Notes under the pieces: model-generated
Seen by the model: the letters and a program-made list of their open reading frames with translations, nothing else
Told to the model about the DNA's origin: nothing
Databases searched by the model: none
Made by a program: the position numbers and the translations under genes
Part shown: positions 11,319 through 34,794 of the stretch, piece by piece
How positions within the stretch are numbered: the first letter of the stretch is position 1
Layout of the letters: every line of letters starts with the position of its first letter
Source: Bacteroidetes bacterium 2013_40CM_41_45
GTDB taxonomy: Bacteria; Bacteroidota; Bacteroidia; AKYH767-A; 2013-40CM-41-45
Reading direction: 5' to 3'
Assembly: GCA_002215675.1 (NCBI GenBank)
Contig: NGFH01000002.1
Span: 76,975-140,974 of the forward strand
Length of the DNA: 64,000 nucleotides

Positions 11319-13040
11319 ATGTCTGACTATATGAAAAGGAAAATTATTACTATTCTGTTTGTTAGCTTATCATTCAATTCCTTCTCACAAGCGCCAAATT
11401 GGCTCTGGAGTAAAGCATGCGGAAGCACTGGAGATGATTCAGGGTTGTCAATTGCTCTTGATGCTTCCGGCAATATTTACACTACTGGTTACTTTGAAGG
11501 AACTGTTGATTTTGACCCCGGTGTAGGCGTATTTAATTTAACTTCTGCAGGATCGTATGATATTTTTATATCCAAACTAGACCCTTCAGGAAACTTCGCG
11601 TGGGCAAAAAGGATGGGTGGAGTAACTGATGATTGGGGACTGTCCATTGCTCTTGATGCTTCCGGTAATATTTACACTACTGGTTATTTTGGAGGAACCG
11701 CTGATTTCGACCCAGGTGCAGCCATATTTAATTTAACTTCTCTAGGAGCTTATAATATTTTTGTATCAAAGTTAGATCCATCTGGCAATTTCGTTTGGGC
11801 AAAAGGAGTGGGCGGAACGGCTATTGATGCCGGCTATGCCATTTCCTTGGATAGTTCAAATGCGATAAACGTTGCGGGATATTTTACAGGAACCGTAGAC
11901 TTCGACCCAGGTGTTGGAGTGTTTAATTTAAGTTCGGGGAGTAATAATTTTGCTAACGCTTTTATTTTGCGTTTAGATAATGCTGGCAACCTTTTATGGG
12001 CAAAGGCATTTGAAGGAATAAATTATTGTTCCATTTATTCTATGACGCTTGCAGCTGGTAATATTTACACGACTGGGGAGTTCATTGGAACTGTTGATTT
12101 TGATCCGGGGTCAGGAACATTTAATATGTCTTCAGTGGCAAACAATGATATTTTTATTTCAAAAATAGATTCTTCCGGAAATTTCGTATGGGCAAAAAGC
12201 ATCGGTGGTACTGATACCGATGAAGGAATTTCGCTGACTACAGATTTGCATGGAAACGTATATACCACGGGTTACTTCGGAGGAACCGTTGATTTCGATC
12301 CAGCAGCCGGAGTATTTAATTTAACTTCAACAAGTGGCAGTTATGACATATTTATTTCCAAACTTGATACTGCAGGTAATTTCAAATCAGCAAAAATGAT
12401 TGGTGGGATCTATAATGATGTTGGTAAAGCGATTATAACTGATTCCTCCGACAACATTTATATCACAGGTTACTTTTCTGATACTGCAGATTTTGACCCA
12501 GGGATAGGTGTATTTAATTTAATTTCTCAAGCGGGAAGTGCCGATATATTCATTTCAAAATTAGATAGTGCATGTAATTTTTTATGGGCGAAAGCAGTCG
12601 GAGGAATTAATGACGAAGCAAGTCAAGATATAGCATTGAATTCATCGGGCAATACTTTTGTTATAGGATATTTTTACAGCCCATCACTCCTATTTAATAC
12701 AACAACTTTAATTAATACAGACAATCAGGGTAACACTTCTGATATGTTTATTGCAAAGCTTGATAATATAATAACTGGTATTGCAAACCTAAAAAACAAT
12801 GACGGCATATTTATTTACCCAAATCCTGTTTTAGAAAATATTACCGTGGTAAATGGTTTGAGTTATTCGGAGAAAAGTTATTTAACTATTTATAATTCTT
12901 TCGGAGAGAAGATTATTGAACAGGAAATTAAATCTTCAAAAATGAACATTGATTGTAGCCATCAACCATCTGGAATTTATTTCGTCACGATCACCAACCA
13001 AGAAGGAAATAAGATTGTACAGAAAATTATTAAGATGTAA
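11319..13040 (+). CDS. SBBP (beta-propeller) repeat protein with T9SS C-terminal sorting domain; start may be the ATG at 11331 (MKRKIITILF...)
   Basis: About 9 repeats of the SGNIYTTGYFxGTVDFDPGxGVFNLTS...DIFISKLDxSGNFxWAK type. Signal peptide. C-terminal IFIYPNPVLENITVV...GIYFVTITNQEGNKIVQKIIKM. Confidence 0.75.
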   Translation: MSDYMKRKIITILFVSLSFNSFSQAPNWLWSKACGSTGDDSGLSIALDASGNIYTTGYFEGTVDFDPGVGVFNLTSAGSYDIFISKLDPSGNFAWAKRMGGVTDDWGLSIALDASGNIYTTGYFGGTADFDPGAAIFNLTSLGAYNIFVSKLDPSGNFVWAKGVGGTAIDAGYAISLDSSNAINVAGYFTGTVDFDPGVGVFNLSSGSNNFANAFILRLDNAGNLLWAKAFEGINYCSIYSMTLAAGNIYTTGEFIGTVDFDPGSGTFNMSSVANNDIFISKIDSSGNFVWAKSIGGTDTDEGISLTTDLHGNVYTTGYFGGTVDFDPAAGVFNLTSTSGSYDIFISKLDTAGNFKSAKMIGGIYNDVGKAIITDSSDNIYITGYFSDTADFDPGIGVFNLISQAGSADIFISKLDSACNFLWAKAVGGINDEASQDIALNSSGNTFVIGYFYSPSLLFNTTTLINTDNQGNTSDMFIAKLDNIITGIANLKNNDGIFIYPNPVLENITVVNGLSYSEKSYLTIYNSFGEKIIEQEIKSSKMNIDCSHQPSGIYFVTITNQEGNKIVQKIIKM

Positions 13041-13047: not shown

Positions 13048-13080
13048 CAGCCCGATGTAAAAATCGGGCTGTTTAATTTT
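13048..13080. terminator. Bidirectional intrinsic terminator between convergent genes
   Basis: Hairpin cagcccgat-gtaaaaa-atcgggctg, flanked by an A-run on one side and a T-run on the other. Confidence 0.6.
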
Positions 13081-13975
13081 AAGCAGGTACAGAAGAATTC
13101 TCTTTTATGGAAGAAGCTATTTCCTTCGGCTTGGTATTTAAAATGTAATCAACTGCTTTCTGCGCTTGCACGCTTGCATAAACAATAAAACGTTTATCGT
13201 TCTTCAGCCGTTCCAACCATCCTTGAATGTAAGCTGCGCTGTTTACAATTTCCACTGCAATTCCTGCCTGAGATTTAAGATAGCATGCTCCAATTTCAGC
13301 CGTAAGCTCCTCTATGGAATATAGTTCTGAGCCGTAAGGTTTGGAGTCCATAACTTCCTTTCTGTTCAGCCGATTTGCATGTCCAGTGCTATGCACAAGC
13401 TCATGAAAGAGCGCTCCATAATAGCTTGCACTGTCTTTAAAGCTTTTTATTCTGGGCATATTAACGTAATCCATTACTGGATGATAATATGCTTTCTGCT
13501 CCTTGTGTACAATTTTCGGTCGCATCTGCATAGCTTTTACAATCTCCTCACATTCTTCAATCGGATCGTTAGGCTTTTCTACCAATGGAATTTTTTCAAT
13601 TGGTATATGCTCGCACTGTGCGATGTTGAAGACCATGTGATAGCGGAGAAAAGCTCTTTTAACGGTCTCTCCGGTTTCTTCATTCTCTTCGTCAACCCAT
13701 TTCCAGAAGACAACGATATGCGCCTTTTCACCTTTGATAACTGTGCCGCCAAGCTCCTTTAGCTGCTTGAAGGTTAAAAAGTAATTTAAAGGATAATCCT
13801 GTAAGGCGAGAAGCATTACATTAATTCCCCGGTACGGTCTACGGGTAATAAGATTCTGCGGAACACCGGCTTCCGTCCATGGCTTTTGCCAGGGAACTTT
13901 GTTCTGCTGCAGTTGTTCGATGATTCTTTCTGTGACGATTTGATAAACGTCTTTTTTTGCTGTTGCTGTTTCCAT
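13079..13975 (-). CDS. ardC: ArdC-like antirestriction protein (DUF1738 N-terminal domain + zincin-like metalloprotease domain)
   Basis: N-terminal ssDNA-binding-like domain (WQKPW...GINVMLL). C-terminal HExxH metallopeptidase motif (FHELVHSTGH). This architecture is typical of conjugative and mobile elements. Confidence 0.7.
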   Translation of the reverse strand: METATAKKDVYQIVTERIIEQLQQNKVPWQKPWTEAGVPQNLITRRPYRGINVMLLALQDYPLNYFLTFKQLKELGGTVIKGEKAHIVVFWKWVDEENEETGETVKRAFLRYHMVFNIAQCEHIPIEKIPLVEKPNDPIEECEEIVKAMQMRPKIVHKEQKAYYHPVMDYVNMPRIKSFKDSASYYGALFHELVHSTGHANRLNRKEVMDSKPYGSELYSIEELTAEIGACYLKSQAGIAVEIVNSAAYIQGWLERLKNDKRFIVYASVQAQKAVDYILNTKPKEIASSIKENSSVPA

Positions 13976-16160: not shown

Positions 16161-16631
16161 TTACTGGCAACGGCAGGCAACAGTCCATACACCTGCGCAG
16201 ATGTCAATTACAACCATTCTACAACTACGGTTTAAAGTGCAAGTACCAGAACACCTCCCAATTGAGGGTTGGCATATTTTAAAGTCCGGTCGTTCATTGC
16301 AATGGCAAAATCCATACGAGTCTTCATCGCAACCCGGAGCGCAGGGTCTTCCAAACATTAGGACTCCGTCTGAAAATGGATCGTCACCAAGCGAGATTAC
16401 CTTAAATCCTTTAAGGTCTTTATGTAATTTTTCATCATATGTTTCTCTCACAGCATCTTTAGTATATTCTTTCCATTGGTTGCCCGTGAGATAAATGATG
16501 GGATGTCCAGGTGCTTTATTTTTCTCAACCTCATTAAAATTGACCAGTTTTAATTTGGATTTAGCAGATTGCGATTGTGCGCTAAATACTATGAAAAGTA
16601 ATAGCACTGTTGCTGTAAAAAGTTTCTTCAT
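16161..16631 (-). CDS. Secreted cysteine-rich small protein (156 aa; 12 Cys in the last ~60 residues)
   Basis: Signal peptide MKKLFTATVLLLFIVFSAQS. C-terminus PCAPGCDEDSYGFCHCNERPDFKICQPSIGRCSGTCTLNRSCRMVVIDICAGVWTVACRCQ. Conserved 33-nt element immediately upstream. Confidence 0.6.
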   Translation of the reverse strand: MKKLFTATVLLLFIVFSAQSQSAKSKLKLVNFNEVEKNKAPGHPIIYLTGNQWKEYTKDAVRETYDEKLHKDLKGFKVISLGDDPFSDGVLMFGRPCAPGCDEDSYGFCHCNERPDFKICQPSIGRCSGTCTLNRSCRMVVIDICAGVWTVACRCQ

Positions 16632-16653
16632 TGTATTGTATGTTTATTTGTCA

Positions 16654-16686
16654 GCCTACTCTTTGGCAGGATTTTCGGCTTACTCC
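16654..16686 (-). promoter_or_regulatory. Conserved 33-nt upstream element, copy 1 (minus-strand sense GGAGTAAGCCGAAAATCCTGCCAAAGAGTAGGC); 23 nt upstream of the start codon of 16161..16631
   Basis: Near-identical copy at 17351..17382 in the same position relative to another start codon. Contains the internal direct repeat GAGTA(A/G)GC. Confidence 0.45.
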
Positions 16687-17087
16687 TATTTTTCGATATA
16701 TTTTTGCTCCTCATAGTTATCTGAGACAATGAGAGGGCAAACAGCGCATGCATCTGCACCGCTTTGATAGTACCATCTACAATCCGAACGGATGCCACAT
16801 TTAGGTAATCTTATTTTTACACTTATCCTTTCTGACTGCTCCATAACAGCTTCGATAATGCCGCATCCATTTCCCGTCCATTGCCTGCACCCGTTTTCTG
16901 CACAACGATTTGAGAAGCGAAATCTTTTTTCAGGTGATCGACCTTTGTGAGCAGTTGCAATAAACTCTTTAGTAACAGGTAACGGTTGCGATAGGAAGTT
17001 AACTGTACCCTGTGCTGTCACAATACCTATCACCTGAGCACCCTCATCACAGACAGCACTTGGGCATGACTTTTTTTCTTCTTCCAT
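16686..17087 (-). CDS. Cysteine-rich hypothetical protein (133 aa; 9 Cys including C-x4-C and C-x2-C pairs), possibly metal-binding
   Basis: SCPSAVCDEG...CAENGCRQWTGNGCG...KCGIRSDCRWYYQSGADACAVCP. Three-nucleotide gap to the upstream 79-aa gene, which suggests translational coupling. Confidence 0.5.
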   Translation of the reverse strand: MEEEKKSCPSAVCDEGAQVIGIVTAQGTVNFLSQPLPVTKEFIATAHKGRSPEKRFRFSNRCAENGCRQWTGNGCGIIEAVMEQSERISVKIRLPKCGIRSDCRWYYQSGADACAVCPLIVSDNYEEQKYIEK

Positions 17088-17090
17088 TCC

Positions 17091-17330
17091 TTACCGAACC
17101 TTGAATTGGTTAAACGTTATGGAGTTCTTCAGCGCATCTGAAGTTCTGAAACGCTTCAACCAAATTCCTAACCATTCTTTTTTGGGAATTCTTTTGGCGC
17201 CCCAAATTGCGCCCAGGTCAATTTTTGCTACATGTTTTGAAACTACTGCCTGGATGTCTTTGTTAATTGCAGCTTTCTGTGCATTACTTAGTGGTATGTC
17301 CAACACCACGTTAAATCTTGTTGTTGCCAT
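17091..17330 (-). CDS. Hypothetical small protein, 79 aa
   Basis: ORF preceded by copy 2 of the conserved 33-nt element and coupled to the downstream Cys-rich gene. Confidence 0.45.
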   Translation of the reverse strand: MATTRFNVVLDIPLSNAQKAAINKDIQAVVSKHVAKIDLGAIWGAKRIPKKEWLGIWLKRFRTSDALKNSITFNQFKVR

Positions 17331-17436: not shown

Positions 17437-18252
17437 TCATCGTTCTTCTTCAGGTAAAGCACGTCCAAGCATGTGGATAACAGCTGCATTAGCATTTTGA
17501 TAATCGCGGCAAAGTTTTGCCATGAAACAACAGAACACAAATGCTGCTGCTGCAACTAGCAGAATAATTACTGCATGAATATTCTCAGCAGGAGTTAAGG
17601 AAGAATTTTCTATTGGATTGCCTCCATCACGGAAAGGAGAATGAAAAACAAACATTGATAAAATATCTCCAATGAAAATAGTAAGAATAGTTGCGGCCGG
17701 AAGAAAGTAGAGCGATGAAAAAAGTGCCCTTGGTAATCTCCTTATGTTATTTTCATTGCTTGGAGCCGGTTGTAGTGAGTCTATCGGTCGGTCATTTTGT
17801 GTAGTGGTCGTGAATACCTGTAACGAAGTCACTCCATTGTAAATATATTTCTTAATGGCCATATTTGGCTCGTTGTTCGCTAACCTTAGAGCTTTTGCAA
17901 TCACATGATTTTCTCTCCTAAAAGAATAATATAAAAACAAAAACATGATTGTAATGATAAAGGAACCAAGTAGGCCTGCATCGGCTACATGAAATTTTAT
18001 TCCCAACACTGGCATTGTTATGAATGAACTGTCTATCCAGTCCTGAACAAGTTTTTGTTGGTTAGACATTGTTACTGCTTCACTCGACCATTTATTCATC
18101 AGAGCAAAACCTCTTAACCATGAAAAGTAAACATTAAATGCCGCAATGAATATTGATAAGCACAGTGTAACGAGTATAGACAACACCCATCGCGAACGCC
18201 TTAGAGATGTCTGCACTGCATTGATAAAGAGTTTTGCTAATTCTAAATCCAT
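17437..18252 (-). CDS. Polytopic membrane protein (about 272 aa from the MDLELAKLF start). The ORF track extends it to 18435, but that extension runs through an upstream repeat array.
   Basis: Several hydrophobic helices (VLSILVTLCLSIFIAAF, LGSFIITIMFLFLYY, AVIILLVAAAAFVFCCF). The N-terminal extension would translate the TAGGGTTTTCCCTA repeats (TRENP x2), so the internal ATG at 18252 is preferred. Confidence 0.5.
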   Translation of the reverse strand: MDLELAKLFINAVQTSLRRSRWVLSILVTLCLSIFIAAFNVYFSWLRGFALMNKWSSEAVTMSNQQKLVQDWIDSSFITMPVLGIKFHVADAGLLGSFIITIMFLFLYYSFRRENHVIAKALRLANNEPNMAIKKYIYNGVTSLQVFTTTTQNDRPIDSLQPAPSNENNIRRLPRALFSSLYFLPAATILTIFIGDILSMFVFHSPFRDGGNPIENSSLTPAENIHAVIILLVAAAAFVFCCFMAKLCRDYQNANAAVIHMLGRALPEEER

Positions 18253-18318
18253 TATTCTGTGAAAAAATTTGTTAATCCAAAGACGGCTGTAAAGGAATAT
18301 ATAATTTTTTTCATATCC

Positions 18319-18394
18319 ATTAGGGTTTTCCCTAGTTTTTTGATCCGAAAAAAGTTTAGGGTTTTCCCTAGTTTGCATTAGGGTTTTCCCTAGT
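18319..18394. promoter_or_regulatory. Three copies of an 18-bp unit containing the palindromic core TAGGG-TTTT-CCCTA (putative operator array) upstream of the membrane-protein gene
   Basis: attagggttttccctagt at 18319, 18355 and 18377. Each core is an inverted repeat with a 4-nt spacer. Lies 67–142 nt upstream of the preferred start codon at 18252. Confidence 0.45.
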
Positions 18395-18630
18395 ATTTTT
18401 TTTACACAATTTTTCCAACAACCAGCTGAAACCATTTAAGGACAAGCATTTCAGAGTTTTTTATACTGTTGTCATTGTCGGGAAGGGGTATGGGAACTTT
18501 TAATTGTTTATGATTCCAGAGTATTTTTGGAAATAATTTTTGATCAATATTAAATGGGAAGCTGAAAACCGAATAGAATAGGCAAACAAAAAAGTGCGGA
18601 GTCAGCACTATAATCACCGACAACCCTATT

Positions 18631-19212
18631 ATGAAACATTTTAAGAAAAGTCAACCAATCATTTTTTGTTTGATATTAAAGCCTAGTATGTGGATAGGAG
18701 TTTACTTCTTCCTAGTTAGTTTATTATGCTTATCCTGTCGCCACCAAACTGCTGAAAACAATGATGAATTACTAAATATTGAAATGGGAAATGATTCAAT
18801 ACAAATTAGTATGAATATTTTACCAAATCAAATGGGGAAATTTGAGTTTAAAAATAAATTTTTTGGTATAATTCCTAGAAAACTAACAGAGAGTTTACAA
18901 GAGCAGGAAATTGAATTTTATATTATTGACGCACCAACTTTCAAACTAGAGGAATTTACTATTGAAAATATTAAAAAGAAAAAATTAAACTTGAGCGCTC
19001 CTAAAAAAATCTCTTCATTCGTGCAACTGGAGCGAGAATTAAATTTGTTAGATTTAGGAATTGACAATGTTACAGTGGTTGCTAAAAAAATAGATGCAAG
19101 TGTGAAAAATGGTAAATTGACTGTTAAAGATTTGGACAATAAGACTACAACAGAATGTACTTGCCCATGCAGCGTAACATTTGATGATAAAGTAAAGGTT
19201 AGTTGTGACTAA
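18631..19212 (+). CDS. Putative lipoprotein, hypothetical
   Basis: Hydrophobic N-terminus with lipobox-like LLCLSC. Lys-rich. Confidence 0.45.
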   Translation: MKHFKKSQPIIFCLILKPSMWIGVYFFLVSLLCLSCRHQTAENNDELLNIEMGNDSIQISMNILPNQMGKFEFKNKFFGIIPRKLTESLQEQEIEFYIIDAPTFKLEEFTIENIKKKKLNLSAPKKISSFVQLERELNLLDLGIDNVTVVAKKIDASVKNGKLTVKDLDNKTTTECTCPCSVTFDDKVKVSCD

Positions 19213-19565
19213 ATATGATACAGCTTCGAGGCGAGAATAGCACGAACCCGTGACATAAAGATTAAAGAAATTAAAAAAGAAAGGGTTTGTTCGGTATTAA
19301 ACAGTGGTGTATCTAACAACAGTGTAGCGTAATTCGAACAAGGATAACTGAAGATTATCCTTTATTCACACGCTGTCTTGCTATCTTAGAATACACAATT
19401 CCAATTTACAAGAGTTGTAGATATTTAAATGTTTATCTGCAATGCTAATCGCTAAGATTGACCAACAGGTGCTAACTTGAAACTGACAACTCAAAAATAT
19501 TTCGTTGAAAGATTGGTTTTTATTAAAAGGAAGTTCTTACATTTGGATTCTAAAATTTATACATT

Positions 19566-19736
19566 ATGGAAAATTTAACTGACAACAATGCTCTTGAGAC
19601 TTTGTCTTTAGATGCAATTGATTCGCTTGAGATTTCAGAGGCTACAGAAATCATCAGCCAAGTTGAATCAAACACGAAGTGGGAAGACACTTCAAAACAC
19701 ATTACTCATAATGGTGCGGGCATGAATTGTCCGTAA
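19566..19736 (+). CDS. Small acidic peptide (56 aa; MENLTDNNALETLSLDAIDSLEISEATEIISQVESNTKWEDTSKHITHNGAGMNCP); candidate precursor peptide; not in ORF track
   Basis: ATG..TAA ORF with its own intrinsic terminator 40 nt downstream, sitting directly upstream of the HExxH/methyltransferase fusion gene. Leader-like acidic N-terminus and a short Cys/His/Met-containing C-terminus. Confidence 0.35.
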   Translation: MENLTDNNALETLSLDAIDSLEISEATEIISQVESNTKWEDTSKHITHNGAGMNCP

Positions 19737-19779
19737 TCTGAAACCATCCCTCTTGATTGGGATTATGACTAATTTTATA

Positions 19780-19811
19780 AAATGGAAACCATTTATGGTT
19801 TCCATTTTTTA
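19780..19811 (+). terminator. Intrinsic terminator (aaatggaaaccat-tt-atggtttccattt + T-run) between the small peptide ORF and the downstream enzyme gene
   Basis: Perfect 13-bp stem followed by ttttt. Confidence 0.6.
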
Positions 19812-19837
19812 TGAGTATTGACAATTGAAAATATTAG

Positions 19838-21901
19838 ATGAATAAACTTTTTCTAAATACAGCGACCGACCGTAGCAGAAAGTTTCACATCTTGAAATTA
19901 AAAACTGTTTTTAGCAAACTTCTTACTCTTGATAAAGAAAACTACTTTGAAAACTCAACTCAAAATTATTTTTCGTTCCTAAGCAAAATCAAAGCAGCAA
20001 ATTTAATTGAGCACAGCACAGATTTTTTTTGGAGTGTGGTTCACAGAGTAAGCAATGTACTTGACAAGAACAACAAAGATGAAATAGAGAAAACTTACAT
20101 CTACTTTCTTTTAAATTCATTTGATTGTTTTTACTCACTACTTCCAATTAATTCCCAACTTCAATTCAAAGGAATTGGGAGTAATGATGTCATACTGCCA
20201 AAACTGGGTCTTTCTTTAGGCTGTTACCTTGACAGCAGTACAACACTTTGCAAGGTTAGTGATACCTCCTTAAGTTATAAACTGAAAAAGTTTGATAGTA
20301 TTCCCGATAACAATTATCTAATTTTCCTCAATGAAATTCCCCAATGGTTCAAGCTAAAACAGGAAATTGTTTGCCAACGGATTTCAGTTATCTCTCAAAA
20401 GCATGAAAGCATTTTTGAAGAGCATTATTATAAAGACTGCTGTGAAAATATTTTTCTATCACACTTATTAAAGCAGAAAATAGACAGAGCATTTGAAATA
20501 ATTAAATTAACTGATATTGATTTGTATCACAAGTTAATTTCTTCAATTGACTATATAATTCCGTATGGGAACGACATTGAAAAAAAATATCCAAACTTTG
20601 CAATTGCGACACTGAAAAAAACTATATTTCTTTCTATTGACTTGCTTTCAGAATCAGACATTCATGTAGCCGAGTGCATAATACACGAATACAGCCATTG
20701 CGAATTACACTGCGTGCAAGACACAATATTGCTGACAAATATTGAGAACAATATTTTGGAGTATTACTCGCCTTGGAGAAAAGATCCCCGCCCATTGTTG
20801 GGACTTATTCATGCAATTTATATTGGTAACGAAATTCTGACGTTTTACTTTACATATCTGCAGAATAGAAATAATAATTCTGACGAAATAATATCGGTTA
20901 GAAAAAAGGTAGAAATTATTGTTCACCAAATTATTATTGCCATAAGACAAATAAAAAAATATCAATTAACTGATTTTGCATTAGAATTGATGAATAGTAT
21001 TCTAAAATCAACTCACGAAATTGCCGAACACTTATCAATTTCTACATCAAATCCACTAGAGGAAATAATTAATCATATTCAAATTTGGAAATCAAATAAT
21101 CCAAACGCAGTTATTGTTGAGAAAGAATTTAATCCATACGAAAATTCAGCTGACTTTTACGACCTTGATTTTACTGGACCTCAATATGAGGATGTTCAAT
21201 TTTATTTAGACCTAGTGAAGCAACATTGCAATGAAGTTCTTGAATTGTGTTGCGGAACGGGTCGAATAACAATCCCAATTGCCAAAAACAATATTAGTGT
21301 TACCGCAATTGACGTCTCAAAAAAAATGCTATCCATTTTTAGAAATAAATTAAAGCAGGAGCAAAGCGAAGTATCCAGTCGAATTAATTTAATTGAAGCA
21401 GACATGGTGAATTTTTCTTTAAGCAAAAAATTCAACTGTATTCTAATTCCCTTCCACTCTTTTCAAGCGTTGACCGACACTTCTCAAATTTCACAAGCAT
21501 TGAAAACAATCTTTCAACATTTAACCGATGAAGGAGTTTTTATTCTCAACTTATTCAGACCGCTTGACGACATGAAAGGGTTGGAAGGTGTTTGTGAGTC
21601 AAAGACCGTTACCGATGACAATGGTGAAATTATCTACAAAAAAAATTGCATCAACACATTTGTTGATACTTCACAGCAAGTTATTTACTACGAGTTACAA
21701 TACTTTCCTATGAACCAAGAGAACGAAGGCCGATGTGTAATTGAAAATCTAAAAACAAAATATTATTATTCAGGTCAAATAAGAGAAATTTTACAGCGAC
21801 ATAATTTTAATATTGAAACAGAATATTACGGGTTTAAAAATGATTCCGCTGATAAAAACAGTTCAGCAGAGTTGACTTTGATATGTAAAAAGAAAATTTA
21901 A
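19838..21901 (+). CDS. Fusion protein: N-terminal HExxH-motif domain (~430 aa) + C-terminal class I SAM-dependent methyltransferase
   Basis: HExxH motif at IHEYSHCELH. Methyltransferase motif I VLELCCGTGRITIPIA, post-I acidic residue (TAIDVS) and motif II (FNCILIPF). Confidence 0.6.
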   Translation: MNKLFLNTATDRSRKFHILKLKTVFSKLLTLDKENYFENSTQNYFSFLSKIKAANLIEHSTDFFWSVVHRVSNVLDKNNKDEIEKTYIYFLLNSFDCFYSLLPINSQLQFKGIGSNDVILPKLGLSLGCYLDSSTTLCKVSDTSLSYKLKKFDSIPDNNYLIFLNEIPQWFKLKQEIVCQRISVISQKHESIFEEHYYKDCCENIFLSHLLKQKIDRAFEIIKLTDIDLYHKLISSIDYIIPYGNDIEKKYPNFAIATLKKTIFLSIDLLSESDIHVAECIIHEYSHCELHCVQDTILLTNIENNILEYYSPWRKDPRPLLGLIHAIYIGNEILTFYFTYLQNRNNNSDEIISVRKKVEIIVHQIIIAIRQIKKYQLTDFALELMNSILKSTHEIAEHLSISTSNPLEEIINHIQIWKSNNPNAVIVEKEFNPYENSADFYDLDFTGPQYEDVQFYLDLVKQHCNEVLELCCGTGRITIPIAKNNISVTAIDVSKKMLSIFRNKLKQEQSEVSSRINLIEADMVNFSLSKKFNCILIPFHSFQALTDTSQISQALKTIFQHLTDEGVFILNLFRPLDDMKGLEGVCESKTVTDDNGEIIYKKNCINTFVDTSQQVIYYELQYFPMNQENEGRCVIENLKTKYYYSGQIREILQRHNFNIETEYYGFKNDSADKNSSAELTLICKKKI

Positions 21902-22066
21902 TGACAACTTAAACCAATTACGTAACTAATGGCAATCGCTTCCAGTAAGTTGTGGCTAATTTAAAAGGTATTCTTAAAATAAGAACAGATCGCGAATCAA
22001 CTGATAATAAAATAGCTATTCGTTATTCAGAACTGTAAGGTGCGTTATTGTATAGAGGCATTGTAT

Positions 22067-25000
22067 TTACATCTTCACAATCTTCTTCGTCACAGATTTC
22101 TTTCCTATATTTATTTCAATATAATAAATTCCTGGAGCCTTTTCTCGAAGGTCAACTTCATGCTTCGTTTCATTTTTTAAATCTTTCTGTTCACTGACAA
22201 TGCTACCTATTACATCAAATATTTTCAGTGACCGTTTGTCTTTATTGTTAGATTTTATTTCCACAGTAAATATTCCTTCAGTTGGATTGGGATAAATTGA
22301 AATCGTATTTAAACCATTCAATTCATTTATACCAACAGTGCATGGATTAATATTGATTGAATCTGAAATGGTGGAACAGCCAAAAGAATTGGTTACAATA
22401 CCGTAGTAATAACCATCACCAACACATAATAATGTATCGTCAGTTCCCGGAGTTGGACTACTTTGATAATACCATTGAATAGTATCTGAAGAAGTTACAG
22501 GAGAGATAATAATAGTATCATTGATATGAATTAATGGTAGAAGAATAGGTGATAGATTAACGCTTACCGTCACTTGCGCTGTTGCCGTACAACCAAGAGC
22601 ATTACCTATTACAGTGTAAGTTGTAGTCGTTGTCGGATTAGCTGTAACACTTACGCCACTTGGTGCACTCAATGCCGTTGCAGGACTCCATGTATATGTG
22701 TTCGCCCCTGCCGCTGTCAAGAGTGTAGATTGTCCCGAACAGTAAGTTACATTCGGAGAAACAGTTGTTACTGGAGTTGGGTTGACTGTTACAGTCACCT
22801 GTGCTATTGCTATACAACCATTATTGTCGGTTCCAGTAACTGTATATGTTCCACTATCAGCAAGAGTAATATTTGTTATGATTGGATTCTGCAGTGAAGA
22901 AGTGTAACTGTTTGGACCTGTCCACGAATAAGAAGTAGCGCCATTCGATATGAGATTCAACACTACTCCTTCGCAAATTATGTTGTTGTTACCAGCTGTT
23001 ACAACTGGATTCGGATTTATGGTAACAATTGTAATTACAGCGGCAGAGCAGCCGTTAGAATCGATTACAGTTACTGAATATATTCCCGTATCTGCAAGAG
23101 TGACTGTTGGTATTGCAGGATTCTGAACCGAAGAAGTGTAACTGTTTGGACCTATCCACGAATAGAAAGTACCTCCGCTTGCCGTAAGATTCAAAGTTGT
23201 TCCTACGCATATAGCACTGTTGCTTCCCGCAATAGCGTTAGGTGGAGCATTTATTAAAATAGAAATTGAATCTGCAACATGGCATCCCAAGCTGTCTGTA
23301 ATTTCAAGTATCACAACAGCGGAAGAATCTATTTGAATTGTTTGGGATGTTGAGCTATCACTCCAATGATATGTATTTGCGATGGGCGATGTTAATTGAA
23401 TGCTACCACAAACGGTCGTGTCATTCCCTAAATTTAAGCTAAGACCATTTTGAACAAATACGATTGTTGTATCAATCATTTCAACATTCCCTGCACTATC
23501 TAAAGAATAAAATTCAATTACATTCAATCCTGCATTAGTGACGGTGACGGTTGTATCTGAAATCCAGTTGCCATTATTTATTCTATATCTTGTTTCAGAA
23601 ACTCCGGAATAATAATCATAAGCAGAAAGTGAAAATGTGTAATTACAAGAGTTGGTAGTGTCAACGTTATTACTGATAGTCAATGGGGGTGTTTTATCAA
23701 TCATAACTTTGTAGCTACAAGTCACATCAGAAAGGTGACCAACTGAATCCTGTGAAACAATATGAATATACCAAATGCCATCCGACAACCTTGTGTTGCT
23801 TGTATCCATGGCAGGAATAGTAGTAATAATTAAAGTGTCTGAATTAACTGAGAAGCCGGTTTGATTAACCTGGTATGCAGAATCATGATTAAGCATAAAG
23901 TAGTATCCAACAACTGTAGAAGTGTCGACAGGATCAACCCAATTTAAAGCAATACTGTCATTTTGATTCCATTGATTTTGGTTAGGATGGGTTGGCGATA
24001 TCAATAGTGGGCAAGGTGGATTATCCAAGTCAATATATACCGTAATTTCATTAGACCAGCTTCCAATATTACCAACAAAGTCAATATCTCTGACTTTAAT
24101 ATGATGCGTGCCTGTTGTTAAAGTAGGGTGATGCGAAAAATTAAATCCGATATTAATCGGAGCTTGATTATTTATTTCAACTTCAAAAAAATCTATCCCG
24201 CTTCCAACATCTCCTGGATTCAACCATGCAAGGTAAGGTGAATCATGGGTAGTCCATAACGTGCCACAGTGGTACTCTGCAATAAGTGGTGCATTAGGCG
24301 GTGTGTTATCATATTTCATTTCACCAACTCCAGGTTGACTTAAATTTCCAAAACTGTCTTTTGCCCTGACATAAACATAACTGATGCCCTCAATATTAAC
24401 AGTAAGATTTACTGAAAGATTTGTTCCAACATTTATCCACGGGTTGCCATTGACCGAGTATTCATAAGTGACACTTCCGCTATTATCAAACACCTGATTC
24501 CACGATACAATAAAATTAGGAGAAGCAGACCATGATGAAGGATTTACCGTTACAACCGGAGACGATGGAGGAATTAAGTCTGGAATAAAAATATTTCGTG
24601 ACGCGGAATTATTTGTGTCATTGCTTTCCGTAATTTGACCGAAAGGATCAACTGAAATGGTTACAATATGGTAACCAACTGGATAATTAAATGTGAAAAT
24701 AACAGTATCAATCTGTCCGGCTGAAAAATTTAAAATCAAACTGTCAATGACATAAGAGTTTATGACAAAATGAATCTTGACACCATTCGCTGACCCTGCA
24801 CCGTTATTTTGAACAATTGCAGAAACAGTATTTGTGATTGAATCCACATGAGTATAAATAATATTCTGCGCCAGCACTTCTAAGTCAGGTAACGTATCAT
24901 GAACCTCTATTGCAGTAGAAGCATAGGCAGTGAGTAATGAATTATCTGTTGCTGTTATGCCGATTGTATAAGTTCCGTTTGTGGGTGTGTTCAGAGCTAC

Positions 25001-28000
25001 CCGCCATGTTGCTGATGAAGAATCAAATTGCATTGTGTAGTTGCTGCTTTGGTAATTTGCAACAACAGAAATTATAGAATCATTATCGGTTATGTATGAT
25101 TCAACATTTACAATTCCTCCTTCATAATTTGGGGAGGACGTGTGAATGAAATGAATGACCGGTGGTTCGTTATCTTGTACTGTTACCTGTATTGAATTGG
25201 AATTATTTAAATCATTGCTTTCAGCAATCTGATTTTGCGGGTCAATGACTGCCATTAGTTGATGCGTTCCGACTAAAGATTGCCAATGAAGAACTAAAGG
25301 TATTGTATCAAAAGCGTCCATAGAATTGATCACAATTGAGTCAACAATTTGGCTATCGGAAAGCAGATAAACGACTACATTGGAAACACTCGATATAGAA
25401 TAATTAGAAACGACAAGCGAAAATGCTGCGTTTGAATTTGGAAGGACAGAGTAGTTAGTTGAAATGGTATTCACTGCAAGGTCAGGCAGAGAATCTACGA
25501 CAGTAAATTGAACAAAAGCTGCTGATTGGAAACCGTTCGAATCTGTGAACAAAACTGGCAAGGAATAATTTCCGGTTTGTGTCGGATAAATCTGCACAGA
25601 GTATGCACTGTCTAATGAACTGAAAGGCATTAAAGTATTGAGATTATTCCAAAGAACAGTAACTGATGCATTAGTTGTTGCCGGAGCAGAAACAAGTTGA
25701 ACATTCGTTGGCGAACCAAGCGATACTACAGCAGGTATTGCTTGTGCGTTGAGTAAGTAAGTAGGAACAGGAACACAAAATTGATGGTTTACCGAGACAG
25801 AGTTATTTGCTTCGTTTGTTTCTAAGATTGAATTGGCACTATCTATTACTACATTGAAAAGGTGACTTCCACAAACGACTTGCCAGGGGAAAGAAAATAC
25901 TAAAGACGAATCGTGAAGAATATTTGCCGACTGATTTCCAATGTTGAATCCATCAACTCTCAGAATTACGTTTACATTATTTAAATCTATGCTTCCAGAA
26001 TTCCTGACTTTTGCTTGTATTAAAACATTACTTCCTGAACCCGATGATGAAGGAACAAAAAGAAAATCCGAATTGAATACTTTTAAGTCCGGTAAGTTTT
26101 GCAATACTTGAATGCTGATTGTAGTAGAAGATGAAAGACTATTTACATCGTAAGCGGTGATGACAGCATTTGAAGTTCCTACTGTATTCGCATTTATGTA
26201 GCCCTCATAGAAAGTAGTAAACGAGTTATAGGTCAGTAAAACATTTTGGCTTTGCCAATTAACAATCACTGATGATATACCTGTTGAATCAATCGTATTC
26301 ACCTGAAAGAAAACCGGGTTACTAACATGTGCCGGATTAGGGGTGGCAGATGCCTGTAAAATTGATGGCGGATAACTGTCATGGACAACAATATACCGAA
26401 TACCAGTGTTATTGTTTTCATCCGATTCAGCAATGACATCTAACGGGTCTGCTTTCACACCAATAGTATCTTGTCCCAACTGTGCAAGCCAATTAAAATT
26501 TAACTGTGCTTGCGAGAGAGCACCTAATGTAACCGTTTGTGTCTGGAATGGCACTCCATCTATAACCAAAGCAACGTCCGCATTTGCAATTGTCTGGTTG
26601 CTATTATTTTTTACAATAGCGGACAAGTGAACCGTATCAGAAATAAACAATTCGGATGGGGAAATAATAATTCCATTATTTTGAATTTCTAAGTCAGGCG
26701 TTGACGAATAGACATTAACGTATAGGATAGTATCACTTGTTAATCCGCTTCGGTCCATTGCAATGACCCGAATAGGAAATAAACCAACTGAAGTTCCGGC
26801 ATTCACCATTACCGAAAAGTTATTGCCCGAAGTATTATTCAATGAAAATGTATTGTTCTGATAAGTACATTCAACTGAAGAAATAATATCGTTATCAGTT
26901 ACTGTAGCATTAACATTAAAATTTCCATTCTGTAAAACATTGAATGGAGTGACAACCGCTGACAATATTGGTCTAATGGTATCAATAATGTAATAATTGA
27001 TAGACAGACTATCTAACTTCAGCTGGCCTGCGCTCGAAGAATACAATTTTACTGGAATAAGGATTGGACCCTGACCTGTTGAATTTACAGAAATGTAGTT
27101 GTTAAGTTCAGTAGCAAAATCGGGCGTAGTTTGATTATATTGATAAACTCCAGAATAAACCCACTCATAAATTCCATTATCTGCAACATCAATCTTGGGA
27201 CCAAGTGGATAAACCTGCTGGTAACTTGGCTGGGAAATAGTAAATGTTTTAAGAGTAATTAGCTCCCACAATCCCGAAGTATTATTTTTAATATAGAAAT
27301 TAACTTTCCAAATACCCGGTATTGATGCAGGTACATTATTAGCAATATTTATCCAACTCCATGCTTTTAAACTTCCATACCAAGCATTATTACCAGGGTC
27401 AGGGGTTGTAGTTGTAACCTGTGAATATAGGGTATTATCAGGTTTTAACCATTCCCATTTTAATTGCAAAGATTCAGCTATGTCATTCAGGGAAACCCAA
27501 CAAAAAGCTGTTGTATCCGATATTCCTGAAAATGTAGTTACACCAGGAGAAGTAGGCAAATAGGAAGAAACATCTTTACATAGAGTAATTGATGCTGCAT
27601 CGGGAAAGGTTGAATTATAAACGGTATCCTTAACAAAATAACTTACAGTATAATAGTTTGTTGTTTCATAAGTGAAGTTGCCACCCACAATATCTTTTGA
27701 AAAATATTTTGTATAGAACCTGCCCTTATCAATTTCAGAACCCCAAGTCCAAGCTTTATACCATGCAAAAGTTGAGGCGTTGCTAATACTATCTTCTAAC
27801 CACCAATTAAAAAAATTATCGGAATCGTAATTTTCCCAACGCCAACCTAAAAAATTAGTTGCTAAATTATCAAAGTACAACCAATGATATACGGTTTCGC
27901 CTCTTCTAAAAACATTCTTTTCAGTTATACAATCATAAGGAGTAGAAGACATAACACTATCAGCCGTGGTAGCCCTCACAAAACGATAATTCCCTCTCGG

Positions 28001-31000
28001 AGTATTCAAAGCGGGATTGCTAAATGATGAAATAATATTTGAAGTAACATAACTGATCCCCTGAATTGTATCTGTATAAATTGTACTTAAAGGGAGTCCT
28101 GTTATTTTAGCAGTTGCTTGCGTCACAGACGAAACAGAGGGCAAGCTAATATACGCTATACTGTTTCCTCCGCCCAGAGGATAAATAAATGTTTGGGAAG
28201 AAAGCCCATTTGAAAACGTATCTGATAAAAAATACATATAGGGTTGGTAAATAAAAAAAAGATTTGTAGTATCTGTATTTCCGAATGAATCAGTTGCTAC
28301 AAGTTTTATTTCATGTATTCCAGTTGAAAGTGCTGTCAACGACAAGTAACTACCTGAACCAAGTAAGCTATTATTGCTGCTATACCAGCTTAGGTTGCTC
28401 TGGCCCAAAATGCCATCTTCATAATCTATTCCCTGGCCCAATAAATTAACTGTATCACCTTGGGCAAATATGCTATTGGGCATAGGGCTCAATATACTCG
28501 CGACTGGTTTTCCATCATTAATGGTAATAGAGATTTGAGCAGATGTAGAAGCTCCCAATGTATCTAAAGCAATAACACTAATAGTATGGTTGCCAACTGA
28601 GAGGGTATTTATTGGAAGCTGTCCACCAGTTCCAAGAGAACCATCAATATTGGAAGACCAACTTATCCTGTGATTTGGTAAAACTCCTTCTTCGTAGTCA
28701 GTAGCATTTGCTTTTAGAGCAACTGTGTCTCCGTGTGCAAAATGATTATTATTAAAAGGAAAGTAAATTGAGACAACAGGTTGGTGCGGTGGTTCTATAT
28801 AGAAATTTACCGCGGCTGAACCGGTGAAACCATCTTGGTCAGTAGTAGAAAGAGTAATCGTTTGATTGCCGGCAATGAGAGAGTTTGTTACAATACTACT
28901 ACCCGTTCCTAAAAATCCGTCAGCATCAGAATGCCATTGCAAATTGCTGCCCGAGATGATTCCATCTTGTGGATCGGTTGCGGTTCCAGAAAGTGTAATG
29001 CTGTTTCCAAAAAAGAAATTCGCACCATTTGCAGGTTGGGTAATCGTGCAAACTGGTATACCAGCATCAATAAAAATATTATTCGAGACAACAGTGCTGT
29101 CAGCACCGTTACTATCTATTGCTTTGAGAGAAATAATATGATAGCCATAGGTCAGCGAACTGATTTGAAGCGTATCACCAAATCCCAAAAATCCATTGAT
29201 GGTTGAATACCATTTCAAATTTGTTCCATGCAAAGCGCCATCCTGTAAATCGGTTGCATGACCTATTAAGTTGATTGTGTCGTGATAATTAAAAGTTTGA
29301 TTTGATAGCGGCTGAGAAATTACCGGAACAGGAGGAGTGAATATTATATTTATAGAAATTGTTGCTGTGTCAGTTGAACCTGCGTTATCCTGTACAGATG
29401 CAGTAATGATATGACTGCCGGGTTGCATCATTACAGATATACTTTGCCCTGTTCCAAGATAACCCTGAAGATTAGAATACCAATGTACTACACCCGAGAT
29501 ATTACCTTGCGGATAATCTGTAGCTGTTGCCTGACACGTTACTAATTGATGCTGGTAAAAAGTTGAATTGGCTGACGGAGCAGTTATCGCAACCTGCGGC
29601 ACTCCATTTAAAACAGTAATTTGTCTCGATGCAGTTGCCGAGTGTCCGCTTGTGTTTTGTGCCGTAAGAGAAATAGTTTGGTTGCCCAATGACAACTGAC
29701 GGTTAATGTTACAGCCAATCCCAAGCATGCTATCAATGTTGGAACCCCAACTTGCACTGCCGCATAAAGAACCATCATTTAAATCAAGAGCATTGCCTGA
29801 AAAAAATATGCCAGTATTATTCGGTAAGGTATCACCAGTGAGCGGAGAATTTATTATAACAACCGGGTAACCCTGAGGAAAAACATAGAGGTTGATATAT
29901 GCGGATGCAGTTTGCCCATGTGAGTTTGTTCCTGTAAAAGTGATAGTATGGTTTCCTGTAGTAATGGAAGCTATTGTCAAATAGCTTCCATTACCTAACA
30001 CACCATCAATGTTTGAAGCCCAGGAAAGATTGTTGTTACTCAAATAACCATCGTGCGGATCATAAGCAAATCCCGAGAACGTCACGTTTTGATTTGCTAT
30101 GGCAGAGCCATTGGCAGGAGAAACAACAGTTACCAAAGGAATGTTGTTTTCTATCAATAGAGAATCAATGGCGATGTTGTTTGTTTCCTTTTTCTCTACC
30201 ACCTGATTACCTTCATCAATAGTCAGGATTAGTTTTTTATTTCCATAAGTAAGAGGCGTCCAGGTAAAAGAAACGTTTTGACTGCTGAATGAATCAATGT
30301 TATTAATGATTTGCTGACTAAGAAGAATATTTTGAAGCTGGCTCTGTGAATTTGTATATTGTTCATAAAGCCGCACAGGAAATTGCTGCGCATTTTTATT
30401 ACCGAAATTGTAAATCGTAGCATCAATCTGTATGGTATCACTTAATATTCGGTTAGTAGTTTGTGGAAGGATTATTCCAATCAGGTCCGCAATGGGGTAA
30501 TCAAGAGTGCCCCCATAAAAATATACTGTTGAATCCTGACTGACGTAACTTTTATCTTGGAAAACTATACTGTCTCTCAGAATTTGTGTTGAAGAATAGC
30601 TGCCGGAATCAATCGGATTGATGTTCGACATAACACAACCTCCATAAGTGGTGTTTCTATTCGCACCATTGAAATCGGTGGACGAAACTGTTGTTGTAAA
30701 TACATTGGACAGGGTAAAACAGGAATGCCAAAAACTATTTATTGTTTGATTGGTAACTGGAATATCAGTTATCCCTGTCATATCGTGGCTGTCAAATAAA
30801 TAACTAAAAGGTTTGTTAGGGTGATTCCACGCCTTGTATTGTTTGGCGAGTGCTATCGTAGTATATATCTGTCTTATTTGACTGAATGCAGAATGATTAT
30901 TTAATAAATTCCTGACAGCGGGTTCACGACTTGTTAGTTGTCCGGTAATCCAATTGTCAAAGGTATTCAGTCTGTTATTTAGGTCATTAGTTTCATTTTG

Positions 31001-33338: not shown

Positions 33339-33864
33339 TTTACACTTGAAGTAAAATTTAGTCGAGACAGGTAATAAAAAATATTTACAGAATCATTCTC
33401 GCCAAATAACATTTCATCCATCTTGCCGGTAAATGGTTTAGAACATTCTCCTACAATAATACAAAATTTCTGAGCACTAACCCTTCAACATCCTCACATT
33501 AAAATAAATTATCAGGTTTTATTATACAGGATAACACCTTGCATTGCAAGTATGTTTTACGTCTTGGTGAATACTGCCGTCCGCACTTACTTTTCCCCAC
33601 CCTTGACTTGCAATTAAATTCAATGTATGGTATACTATACCAGTAGGATTATCAATTAAATATTACCCATTGTCCCGAGAGGATCGGGCCGAAAAGGCTT
33701 GATGCAAGCAATGGCTTTTGAAGATTGCATATTCCACTCTGAAGTGTAGTATGTAGTTGTTGTACGCCTTACTGCGGACAACGCCCCCGACGGGGGAAGG
33801 AAGGTACCTTCGGGTATTATTCGCCAAAAGCCCACTTGACTTGCATCAGTGGGCTATTTGGTTT

Positions 33865-34794
33865 ATGAAATTAAGTGAAGCAATAGAAAAATTTTCAAAG
33901 TGGCGAACATTTAAGGTTAAGAAATGTACTGTCAAAGGGTACGAGCTTATCCTGAAACAATTCTGCGTATTTGTCCGCAACTGTGATATTGAAAGAGTAC
34001 GACTGGAAGATGTTACATCTTGGTTCAGTCTTTTGAACGATCTTCAGTGGCAGCACAATTCATTCATCACAAAGGCGCAGGCGCTCAGAAAGTTTTTCGA
34101 ATTCTACAAGATGCAGGGTTATTTGGTCCTTGAACCGAACCTTATTCCTCTTCCATCGAAGGAGTACAACATTCCCCGTGTTGCTTCAGAAGAAAATTAT
34201 CGCAAATTATTATCAGCATTTCCTGTTAAAACGAACGACCCAAGGCACATAAGAAATAGGGCAATCGTAATGCTTTTATGGGATACCGGAGCGCGAAACA
34301 GTGAAATTCTTGCGCTTGATGTAAATGATATGGATACAGAGAAAATGCATGCAGTTATAAAGACAGAAAAATCCAAAGGCCGCAGGCCATTCCGGGAAAT
34401 TTTTTGGACTGAAGAAACTAACAAAGCTTTGCTTGCCTGGATTACTAAAAGAGAATTTTTAAAGAAAACAAAAATGCAGCATATGGATGAATGTTTGTTT
34501 CCCTCTATCTGTTCTTCAGCAGGACTAAATTTAAGCGGAAGAAGATTAACCAATAAAGGTGTCGCGGAGTTTTTAAGACGATATTCGAACCGTGCCGGTA
34601 TTCCTTATATAAATGCACACAGTTTCCGCCATCACATGGGTCACGATATTATTTCCCAAGGAGGAAGCGCAGCAGATGTGATGAATATACTTGGTCACGC
34701 TACGCTTGCCAGTTCTTCGATTTATACAATGATGACTGGAAAAGAATTGGAGAATCGCTACAACATATTTAAAAACAGAAAATCGTCTGTGTAA
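33865..34794 (+). CDS. Tyrosine site-specific recombinase/integrase (the ORF-track start at 33757 is probably leader sequence; preferred start MKLSEAIEKF)
   Basis: LWDTGARNSEILAL (Arg box), HSFRHHMGHDI (H-x-x-R) and LGHATLASSSIYT (catalytic Tyr region). Confidence 0.8.
   Translation: MKLSEAIEKFSKWRTFKVKKCTVKGYELILKQFCVFVRNCDIERVRLEDVTSWFSLLNDLQWQHNSFITKAQALRKFFEFYKMQGYLVLEPNLIPLPSKEYNIPRVASEENYRKLLSAFPVKTNDPRHIRNRAIVMLLWDTGARNSEILALDVNDMDTEKMHAVIKTEKSKGRRPFREIFWTEETNKALLAWITKREFLKKTKMQHMDECLFPSICSSAGLNLSGRRLTNKGVAEFLRRYSNRAGIPYINAHSFRHHMGHDIISQGGSAADVMNILGHATLASSSIYTMMTGKELENRYNIFKNRKSSV

Follow-up and report, generated by a model that had tools for sequence, protein, structure and literature searches.

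What is the task of a 56-amino acid (aa) open reading frame (ORF) that is placed just in front of a gene for a fused HExxH-motif and S-adenosylmethionine (SAM) methyltransferase protein? The pair lies in a 64,000-nucleotide (nt) stretch of Bacteroidetes bacterium 2013_40CM_41_45 (contig NGFH01000002.1, positions 76,975 to 140,974 of the forward strand), and this whole stretch is called the window below. A preliminary description made from the sequence had read the locus as a candidate for the biosynthesis of a peptide that is synthesized on ribosomes and then modified post-translationally (RiPP), and both genes that it reported are present, at 19566..19736 and 19838..21901 of the + strand. Comparison of related loci together with predicted structures makes a RiPP cassette probable, the core of the 56-aa peptide being oxidised by the HExxH module and methylated by the methyltransferase. 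The cassette is composed as follows.

19413..21942, + strand: whole cassette, the sole stretch in common with locus L087, which is itself an 85%-identical locus
19566..19736, + strand: putative precursor peptide gene, an ORF of 56 aa plus stop codon, product MENLTDNNALETLSLDAIDSLEISEATEIISQVESNTKWEDTSKHITHNGAGMNCP
19566..19667, + strand: putative acidic leader (residues 1-34), which bears the motif L-[ED]-x-L-[ST]-[LFV]-[DE]-x-I-[DE]-x-[LIM]
19668..19733, + strand: putative core, residues 35-56, SNTKWEDTSKHITHNGAGMNCP, family consensus SN[TI]xW ... NGxx[MW]xC
19838..21901, + strand: gene of the fused modifying enzyme, an ORF of 687 aa plus stop codon, with an identical protein in public assemblies

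ORFs of similar size are listed by dozens in this AT-rich window and the 56-aa length alone is not significant; the ORF gains its significance from conservation and from an excess of synonymous changes. A homologous ORF of 50-74 aa was found on the same strand, 30-175 nt upstream of the HExxH gene, at all 15 loci with readable upstream DNA (the window, L087, L088, L089, L090, L001, L002, L005, L167, L168, L169, L171, L172, L173 and L175), across which enzyme identity to the window runs from 85% down to 37%. The expectation that the small ORF and its C-terminal motif would be conserved beside homologous enzymes was borne out at each of them. In agreement with the acidic leader-like N-terminus proposed earlier, residues 1-34 contain 9 acidic and no basic residues; residues 9-22 are LETLSLDAIDSLEI, and the leader motif given above is kept across the family precursors. 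The core begins with an invariant SN[T/I]xW, which in most members is followed by x[DN][TSK]S[KN]H..xNGxxMNC(P). Precursors end in Cys or Cys-Pro, and the terminal Pro is missing from many members. We inferred the leader/core border from the onset of this conservation.

Between the window and L090, the 22 core codons differ by nine synonymous and no non-synonymous changes (proportion of synonymous changes, pS, 0.69; proportion of non-synonymous changes, pN, 0). Against L002, whose enzyme is 38% identical, the core has nine synonymous and seven non-synonymous changes (pS 0.74, pN 0.13). The pN/pS ratio of the leader is about 0.15-0.65, that is, under weaker constraint than the core, and that of the whole precursor ORF is 0.11-0.45. 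These comparisons indicate that the core is under extreme purifying selection, with synonymous change near saturation, and that the 56-aa ORF is a real gene. It had been described as unannotated, which turned out to be incorrect: the identical product is on record in NCBI, JGI, ENA and Logan assemblies, where gene calling has placed it ahead of the enzyme gene under no name or family. Pfam has no match in the 56-aa peptide or in most of the neighbouring genes, and a precursor profile searched against 1.84 billion representative proteins returned 11 related clusters, all of 50-63 aa. By this measure the precursor family is real yet very small.

One of the precursor loci carries an irregularity. 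At 5797..5866 of L001 (same as L007; a Sediminibacterium metagenome-assembled genome (MAG), CAZDQB010000009.1) an exact 30-nt repeat occurs, 40 nt apart, within the core-coding region and shifts the precursor reading frame; this locus is also without an adjoining methyltransferase. The repeat is either a genuine disruption or variant, or an assembly artefact.

The type of chemistry that the precursor might undergo depends on the enzyme, whose N-terminal part has the following features.

19838..21118, + strand: predicted alpha-ketoglutarate-dependent HExxH (aKG-HExxH) oxygenase module, residues 1-~427, from TIGR04267, the ChlH profile match and the AlphaFold2 (AF2) fold
20684..20698, + strand: HEYSH, residues 283-287, the HExxH motif
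20765..20794, + strand: YSPWRKDPRP, the YSPWRxDxRP block
20807..20821, + strand: IHAIY with a conserved His, in the oxygenase module

Residues 216-347 scored 58.9 bits with NCBIfam TIGR04267 (aKG-HExxH-type peptide beta-hydroxylase), for which the curated cut-off is 40, and the orthologue at L002 scored 78.9 bits. E279, H283, E284, H287, Y310-R314, R318 and H325 are invariant among 16 homologues. A profile of 15 homologues (residues 1-432) matched the ChlH structure 8s5f with E = 5e-22, in an alignment that spans HEHRH...SPWREDLRP...HAI. The AF2 model of residues 1-432 has a predicted local distance difference test (pLDDT) score of 91 and a predicted template modelling (pTM) score of 0.91, and in a Foldseek search of the PDB it matched SjiH (22ob, E = 1.5e-10, TM 0.66/0.69 over 444 columns) and the ChlB HExxH domain (8s5f, E = 2e-9). 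Nothing else in the PDB, and no zincin protease, came below E = 1. Because the fold match is full-length, the entire ~430-residue module, beyond the motif region, has the aKG-HExxH oxygenase fold, and residues 1-~425 are a full-length predicted aKG-HExxH peptide oxygenase module. The HExxH-family assignment of the N-terminal domain in the preliminary description is in agreement with these results, by sequence as well as by fold. Pfam gave no match to residues 1-430, PADLOC matched the enzyme only via a generic methyltransferase fold (mad2), and our literature search returned nothing relevant on SjiH. Close homologues of the module are rare, with 21 clusters at E < 1e-70 among 5.8 billion proteins and one of 185,579 species-representative genomes, the Sediminibacterium MAG.

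The same searches bear on a hydrolytic function, in which the HExxH module would be a zinc metallopeptidase cleaving the small peptide or another substrate and would form a protease/methyltransferase processing pair. HExxH is the classic zincin motif and older annotations assumed such a function, PflC can perform hydrolytic cleavage without leader (PMC12636437), and the cassette has no dedicated leader protease. A peptidase is nevertheless very unlikely, given that the aKG-HExxH model was passed while no peptidase family was matched in Pfam or NCBIfam, that the ChlH-type YSPWRxDxRP...H block is invariant in the window family, and that SjiH and the ChlB HExxH domain were the only significant fold matches.

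The remainder of the enzyme is made up of a linker and a second domain.

21119..21148, + strand: fusion junction or linker, residues ~428-437, EKEFNPYENS, from gene comparison, pLDDT ~70
21149..21898, + strand: predicted class I SAM-dependent methyltransferase domain, residues ~438-687, from Pfam, NCBIfam and fold
21239..21265, + strand: SAM motif LELCCGTGR, residues 468-476, in the methyltransferase domain

Pfam, NCBIfam and structure-neighbour searches agree with the earlier assignment of the C-terminal domain to the class I SAM methyltransferases; its AIDVS motif occupies residues 490-494 of the 687-aa protein. Pfam sees a generic class I domain only (Methyltransf_25, E = 2e-15). The best NCBIfam match was daptide_MTase (NF041820) with 113.6 bits, twice the score of any other model (the next family scored 51 bits). 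The nearest solved structure by sequence (phmmer against PDB) was CorZ (9SOT, 2e-18), then MtfA (2e-12), with DesVI and TylM1 also matched. Foldseek neighbours were CcbJ, TylM1, CypM, KedS8 and GNMT (TM 0.79-0.86 on target), and DesVI, MtfA and the C-methyltransferase PsmD were further neighbours of the fold. CypM is the cypemycin N-terminal methyltransferase, MtfA acts on glycopeptides, and TylM1 and DesVI are sugar N,N-dimethyltransferases; CorZ/BytZ (of the myxarylin pathway), CypM, MtfA, CcbJ and TylM1 all have a free amine as methyl acceptor, which for several of these enzymes belongs to a RiPP. Sequence and predicted fold together place the window domain with these amine N-methyltransferases.

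The substrate of CorZ itself is the RiPP myxarylin, which is methylated on its N-terminal amine (PMC12951456). The known peptide amine methyltransferases take a free terminus as their substrate, following other processing steps, whereas the window enzyme is fused to an oxygenase of the leader-dependent type, and in contrast to the CorZ/CypM-type enzymes no amine-exposing step is evident in the window cassette. A substrate with its leader attached would offer only Lys side chains and the N-terminal alpha-amine as free amines, so His, Cys or a newly installed hydroxyl group are also possible methyl acceptors.

How the two predicted activities came to be in one polypeptide can be read from the relatives. 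The full-length AF2 model has a pLDDT of 89.3 and a pTM of 0.68, with pLDDT falling to ~70 at the linker, which suggests a flexible tether between two well-folded domains whose mutual orientation is uncertain. The methyltransferase is a separate gene in L088, L089, L090, L169, L167, L172 and L002, where it starts 0-20 nt past the stop codon of the HExxH gene or overlaps it. The fused form was found in the window, in L087 and in three other clusters that are at least 80% identical. Fused forms are without ~14 codons, including the stop codon and the first methyltransferase residues (IIE-stop-SNQKKMTPTEELEQKEFN changed to IVEKEFN). By this alignment the fusion arose recently from two genes that lay side by side, via a ~14-codon deletion. 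The hydroxylase/methyltransferase fusion pointed out in the preliminary description is present, and its standing is refined: a methyltransferase is found at 9 of the 14 loci where this could be judged. Since loci without it exist, the invariant unit is the precursor with the HExxH gene and the methyltransferase is accessory to it.

The cores of the methyltransferase-less loci diverge in the C-terminal half. L168 and L173 have SNTQW...NG..[WM]..C, and L005 and L171 have SNINWK.PQVA..IAQYPSMK.... A C-terminal MNC(P) is present at 9/9 methyltransferase-positive and 0/5 negative loci; it is the sole exclusive feature, in small numbers. We also considered His methylation on the ground of co-occurrence, and this was weakened by the distribution of core His11, which is found at 9/9 methyltransferase-positive loci and also in the methyltransferase-less L001. 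In L005 (precursor 5603..5827) and L171 (91..297) the core after SNINW reads K[SA]PQVA[FC][TS]IAQYPSMK[YF].KTE.QF.L. The cassette of L004 and L005 is followed by a conserved 364-391-aa protein without a family match, which could be an alternative partner enzyme.

Characterised aKG-HExxH enzymes are leader-dependent RiPP oxygenases. They beta-hydroxylate His, Asp, Phe, Gln and Pro or perform an oxidative cleavage of the backbone; they include ChlH (the HExxH domain of ChlB), for which a cyclophane formed beforehand is the substrate of His and Asp hydroxylation, BpmH/BipH of the biphenomycin pathway, PflC/PosC, which combine Gln hydroxylation with oxidative backbone cleavage that leaves a C-terminal amide, and PesO, which hydroxylates Pro, and all of them share clusters with a radical SAM enzyme, a B12-dependent radical SAM enzyme or an oxidative enzyme dependent on multinuclear non-heme iron (MNIO) (PMC12636437, PMC13060819, PMC12707348). 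The family was recognised as RiPP oxygenases only from 2024, and its chemistry is described as currently unpredictable (PMC13060819). The window enzyme is like these members (TIGR04267 / IPR026337) in passing the hidden Markov model cut-off, in motifs and in fold, and like them it has a precursor with a leader encoded adjacent. It differs in that its cassette encodes no oxidative enzyme besides the HExxH module, and it is only ~15-23% identical to ChlH. PflC/PosC systems have a poly-Gln core, a C-terminal ARMD and an MNIO-nitroreductase (PMC12636437), whereas the window core is SNTKWEDTSKHITHNGAGMNCP, and no Pfam or NCBIfam match to an MNIO or nitroreductase was found at the window locus, which sets it apart from PflC-type clusters.

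The FxsB/ChlB-type (triceptide-like) clusters of a radical SAM enzyme with an HExxH module come closer, in that the HExxH module is related and the acidic leader is similar (LSLSDIENTD and ELEELDISKL there, LETLSLDAIDSL in the window). They have in addition a cyclophane-forming radical SAM/SPASM enzyme (TIGR04269, 380 bits), extra genes and His/Ser-rich cores; the window cassette is without a radical SAM gene, and its core is different. Near the window locus and at every one of the 15 close loci no radical SAM gene was found, and triceptide/ChlB-type membership was rejected, no radical SAM/SPASM enzyme being encoded there. In a Bacteroidota variant of the FxsB type (L049, L135, L144, L151, L152 and L155) a class I methyltransferase adjoins the HExxH gene, yet with 33.6 bits it does not resemble the daptide type. 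Outside the window clade, the full-length relatives that come nearest are 23-27% identical, and all follow an FxsB-type radical SAM gene, which the window clade has lost. The window clade therefore seems to be a side branch without a radical SAM enzyme, whose substrate would be a linear peptide and which has acquired a methyltransferase similar to that of the daptides.

The variant represented by L049, L135, L144, L151, L152 and L155 (e.g. L135 3667..8723) is itself a larger and apparently uncharacterised Bacteroidota cluster type. Its precursor is 70 aa long, with the leader STLSLSDIENTDSEIL and the His/Ser-rich core GHSSHSSSSGRGHSS, and has its leader motif in common with the window peptide; the cluster also has genes for a TIGR02466-like 215-aa protein, a methyltransferase, an HExxH protein (TIGR04267, 89 bits), an FxsB-type radical SAM enzyme (380 bits) and a 299-aa protein.

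Membership in the daptide class was considered as well. That class has genes for an oxidative decarboxylase, an aminotransferase and a domain-of-unknown-function protein with a RiPP recognition element (DUF-RRE), and a precursor with a C-terminal Thr (10.1101/2023.03.08.531785). It was rejected for the window, where the methyltransferase scores below the 175-bit cut-off, the daptide genes are absent from the cassette and the conserved neighbourhood, and the precursor has no C-terminal Thr. No description of an HExxH plus methyltransferase cassette or fusion, or of this precursor family, was found in the literature covered, which lies mostly outside the subscription journals that include the family-defining Nat Chem 2024 paper.

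Which genes belong to the cassette was decided from L087. The DNA shared with the window is a single 2546-nt blastn match of 83.5% identity that covers 19413..21942, and tblastx found no homology between the two outside this interval. The genes at 18631..19212, 17437..18435 and 16161..17330 had been considered as cluster members and were rejected, because the homology to L087 stops at 19413. The cassette has a GC content of 31.9% compared to 37.4% for the whole window. By these measures it is a discrete, self-contained, low-GC two-gene unit whose flanks differ between loci. The RiPP layout proposed in the preliminary description is supported, with the refinement that protease and exporter are absent from the cassette.

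Several observations weigh against a peptide that is oxidised and methylated in its core. Pfam and NCBIfam found no protease, transporter, immunity, radical SAM or MNIO gene in 19413..21942. No RRE was recognised in the cassette by Pfam or NCBIfam; residues 1-215 of the enzyme gave no match to either and fold within the SjiH-like module. ChlH requires a pre-formed cyclophane, and the window cassette has no radical SAM enzyme. Some HExxH members are also hydrolytic (PMC12636437). The 175-bit equivalog cut-off of daptide_MTase is failed by both the window (113.6) and L002 (121.7) proteins, and the match in the window protein is confined to the SAM-binding half. The relatives of the methyltransferase lean, without amounting to a result, toward N-methylation. 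The precursor and HExxH pair occurs without an adjoining methyltransferase in L001, L005, L168, L171 and L173, so the methyltransferase is not essential to the family. Finally, conservation is higher in the core than in the leader, and this is not usual for antimicrobial RiPPs. With these points taken into account, we still consider core oxidation and methylation to be the probable function of the locus.

Part of this evidence would be explained by a RiPP product that is no secreted antibiotic and acts inside its producer, as a defence or competition factor borne by a mobile element or as a cofactor- or metal-binding peptide. Such a role would explain why the cassette has neither protease nor exporter, and also why the core, under the extreme purifying selection described above, is near-invariant. 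It would also agree with the unrelated flanks at different loci and with the types of genes found there, as listed below.

Window: ArdC-like/zincin protein, tyrosine integrase and two DNA methylases
L002: integrase, IS66 and HsdR-N
L167: TraG-like coupling protein and CHAP
L001: integrase arm-binding domain
L087, 9213..10832: bSEFIR/TIR defence protein (PADLOC E = 1e-71), 1.1 kb 3' of the orthologous cassette
L004: CHAT and a faint TIR match

The surroundings of the cassette are variable between loci and rich in genes of mobile-element or defence type, and from this the cassette looks like a mobile unit that recurs in mobile or variable islands. No conserved peptidase or transporter was found among the differing neighbours at the window and the other loci examined. 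A mobile-element-borne role of this kind has been proposed for anti-phage lanthipeptides, and anti-phage RiPP clusters without a protease have a precedent (10.64898/2026.08.26.747419, citing Shomar et al. 2026). The argument is, however, one of guilt by association: many of the further PADLOC matches among flanking genes are to generic domains (HTH, TatD, methyltransferases), the enzyme's own match is only through its methyltransferase fold, and the genes for RiPP proteases and exporters often lie at other sites of a genome. We regard an intracellular role as unlikely.

A more far-reaching proposal is that the cassette represents a new RiPP class, with a stand-alone aKG-HExxH enzyme as the class-defining catalyst of a reaction beyond hydroxylation, a fused amine-type methyltransferase that finishes the product, and an intracellular defence or competition peptide carried by mobile elements. 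Linking or cleavage at core Trp5, Asn-Gly 15-16 or Cys21 would then be a possibility, and the proposed role would account for the absent exporter and protease and for the frozen core. We consider this improbable. The locus is best described as a rare, minimal, mobile RiPP cassette, in which an amine-type methyltransferase is joined to a stand-alone aKG-HExxH oxygenase, with a strongly conserved and previously uncharacterised precursor family, a lead for genome mining and not a categorically new system.

The way in which one short and one long gene may be expressed to different levels is suggested by the DNA around the precursor gene.

19513-19515, + strand: TTG upstream of the candidate -7 element, read from the sequence
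19538..19545, + strand: candidate -7 promoter element TACATTTG, which fits TAnnTTTG
19779..19811, + strand: intrinsic-terminator-like hairpin and U-tract, perfect 13-bp stem 19779-19791 / 19796-19808 with a 4-nt loop

TAnnTTTG is the Bacteroidota-type -7 promoter consensus, and a TAnnTTnG-like element is found ~20 nt 5' of the precursor ATG in seven aligned loci. The candidate element may act as the precursor promoter. A sigma-70 scan gave promoter-like counts equal to shuffled expectation, the sigma-70 consensus being uninformative for this phylum, and Rfam over 19000..22100 gave no riboswitch or known RNA, only sub-threshold chance matches. The perfect 13-bp-stem terminator noted in the preliminary description was recovered with its T-run: its folding energy is -15.6 kcal/mol (z = -4.6), and none of 200 shuffles was as stable. 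A simple terminator scanner did not list the hairpin at 19779..19811. A hairpin with U-tract is clear at the same position in the window, L087, L088, L089, L090 and L002 and weaker in L001, with stem sequences that differ (GGAAACCA in the window, GGTAACTATT in L088 and GGAAGUCGA in L002); in L175 an intergenic hairpin is visible by eye, without a U-run. The distance is 42 nt from the precursor stop codon to the hairpin and 26 nt from the hairpin to the enzyme ATG. The 26-nt gap leaves no room for a separate enzyme promoter, and the enzyme gene is therefore most simply expressed via read-through. This arrangement points to partial termination at the hairpin with read-through into the enzyme gene. 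Folding of the DNA 3' of the enzyme gene showed no terminator-like structure.

The conserved hairpin and U-tract between the two genes could also mean that the small ORF encodes no substrate at all but a leader peptide with a regulatory task, whose translation or ribosome stalling would control the terminator and with it enzyme expression; its conserved Trp and C-terminal Cys-Pro are loosely reminiscent of arrest peptides. However, the stop codon is 42 nt before the hairpin, beyond the masking reach of a terminating ribosome, the predicted fold gives no sign of a competing anti-terminator pairing, and the terminal Pro is absent from many family members. A 22-residue block that is kept across 38%-identical enzymes beside a peptide-modifying family is substrate-like, and the core type co-varies with methyltransferase presence. 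A purely regulatory peptide is extremely unlikely.

For the modified peptide that we favour, the following order of events may be envisaged. A promoter just 5' of 19566 would drive transcription of the precursor gene; most transcripts would end at the hairpin (19779-19811), and those that read through would carry the enzyme gene too, resulting in a high peptide-to-enzyme ratio. The acidic ~34-residue leader (LxxLSLxxIDxL) would dock the peptide on the aKG-HExxH module, which would use Fe(II), 2-oxoglutarate and O2 to oxidise at least one of the 22 core residues. Beta-hydroxylation would be the likeliest reaction, with the invariant SN[T/I]xW as the likeliest common target; family precedent makes hydroxylation at or near this motif the default. 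Backbone alpha-hydroxylation at the conserved Asn-Gly, or chemistry at the invariant Trp or Cys, are less certain alternatives. The specific chemistry is much less secure than the RiPP reading itself. The tethered amine-type SAM methyltransferase would then add at least one methyl group, presumably within that core portion whose presence goes along with the methyltransferase, either D-T-S-K-H or the NGxxMNC at the C-terminus. Any removal of the leader and any export would depend on genes outside the cassette. The data show the gene pair and its conservation, the membership in families and folds, the fusion, the selection on the core and the conserved hairpin; promoter use, partial termination, leader binding by the HExxH module, the modified residues, the type of methylation and the biological role we infer.

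The cassette offers the simplest test system of its kind, one peptide and one polypeptide with both predicted activities, and unfused and methyltransferase-less natural variants exist for comparison. The very strong conservation of the core, taken with a rare family that is found repeatedly in mobile or variable islands, speaks for a product with a specific biological target more than for a generic bacteriocin.

Other genes of the window describe the genomic setting. An ArdC-N plus zincin (MPTase-PolyVal) protein is encoded at 13079..13975 (- strand). Genes for a tyrosine integrase and for two DNA methyltransferases, of the N6_N4 and D12 classes, are found at 33757..34794, 35806..36801 and 37042..37833 (all + strand). 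These genes suggest that the cassette lies inside an integrative or conjugative genomic island. The gene at 22067..32785 (- strand) encodes a 3572-aa CARDB/Big/PA14 protein with a C-terminal Por_Secre_tail sorting domain of the type IX secretion system (T9SS); it is convergent with the enzyme gene, with 165 nt between their ends. A 573-aa protein encoded at 11319..13040 (+ strand) likewise ends in a T9SS Por_Secre_tail sorting domain, and these sorting domains identify the host as one of the Bacteroidota. At 16161..17330 (- strand) three adjacent small ORFs encode a 156-aa Cys-rich protein with a signal peptide, a 133-aa Cys-rich protein and a 79-aa protein, none with a Pfam or NCBIfam match. 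They could form a separate small secreted-protein or peptide system outside the cassette.

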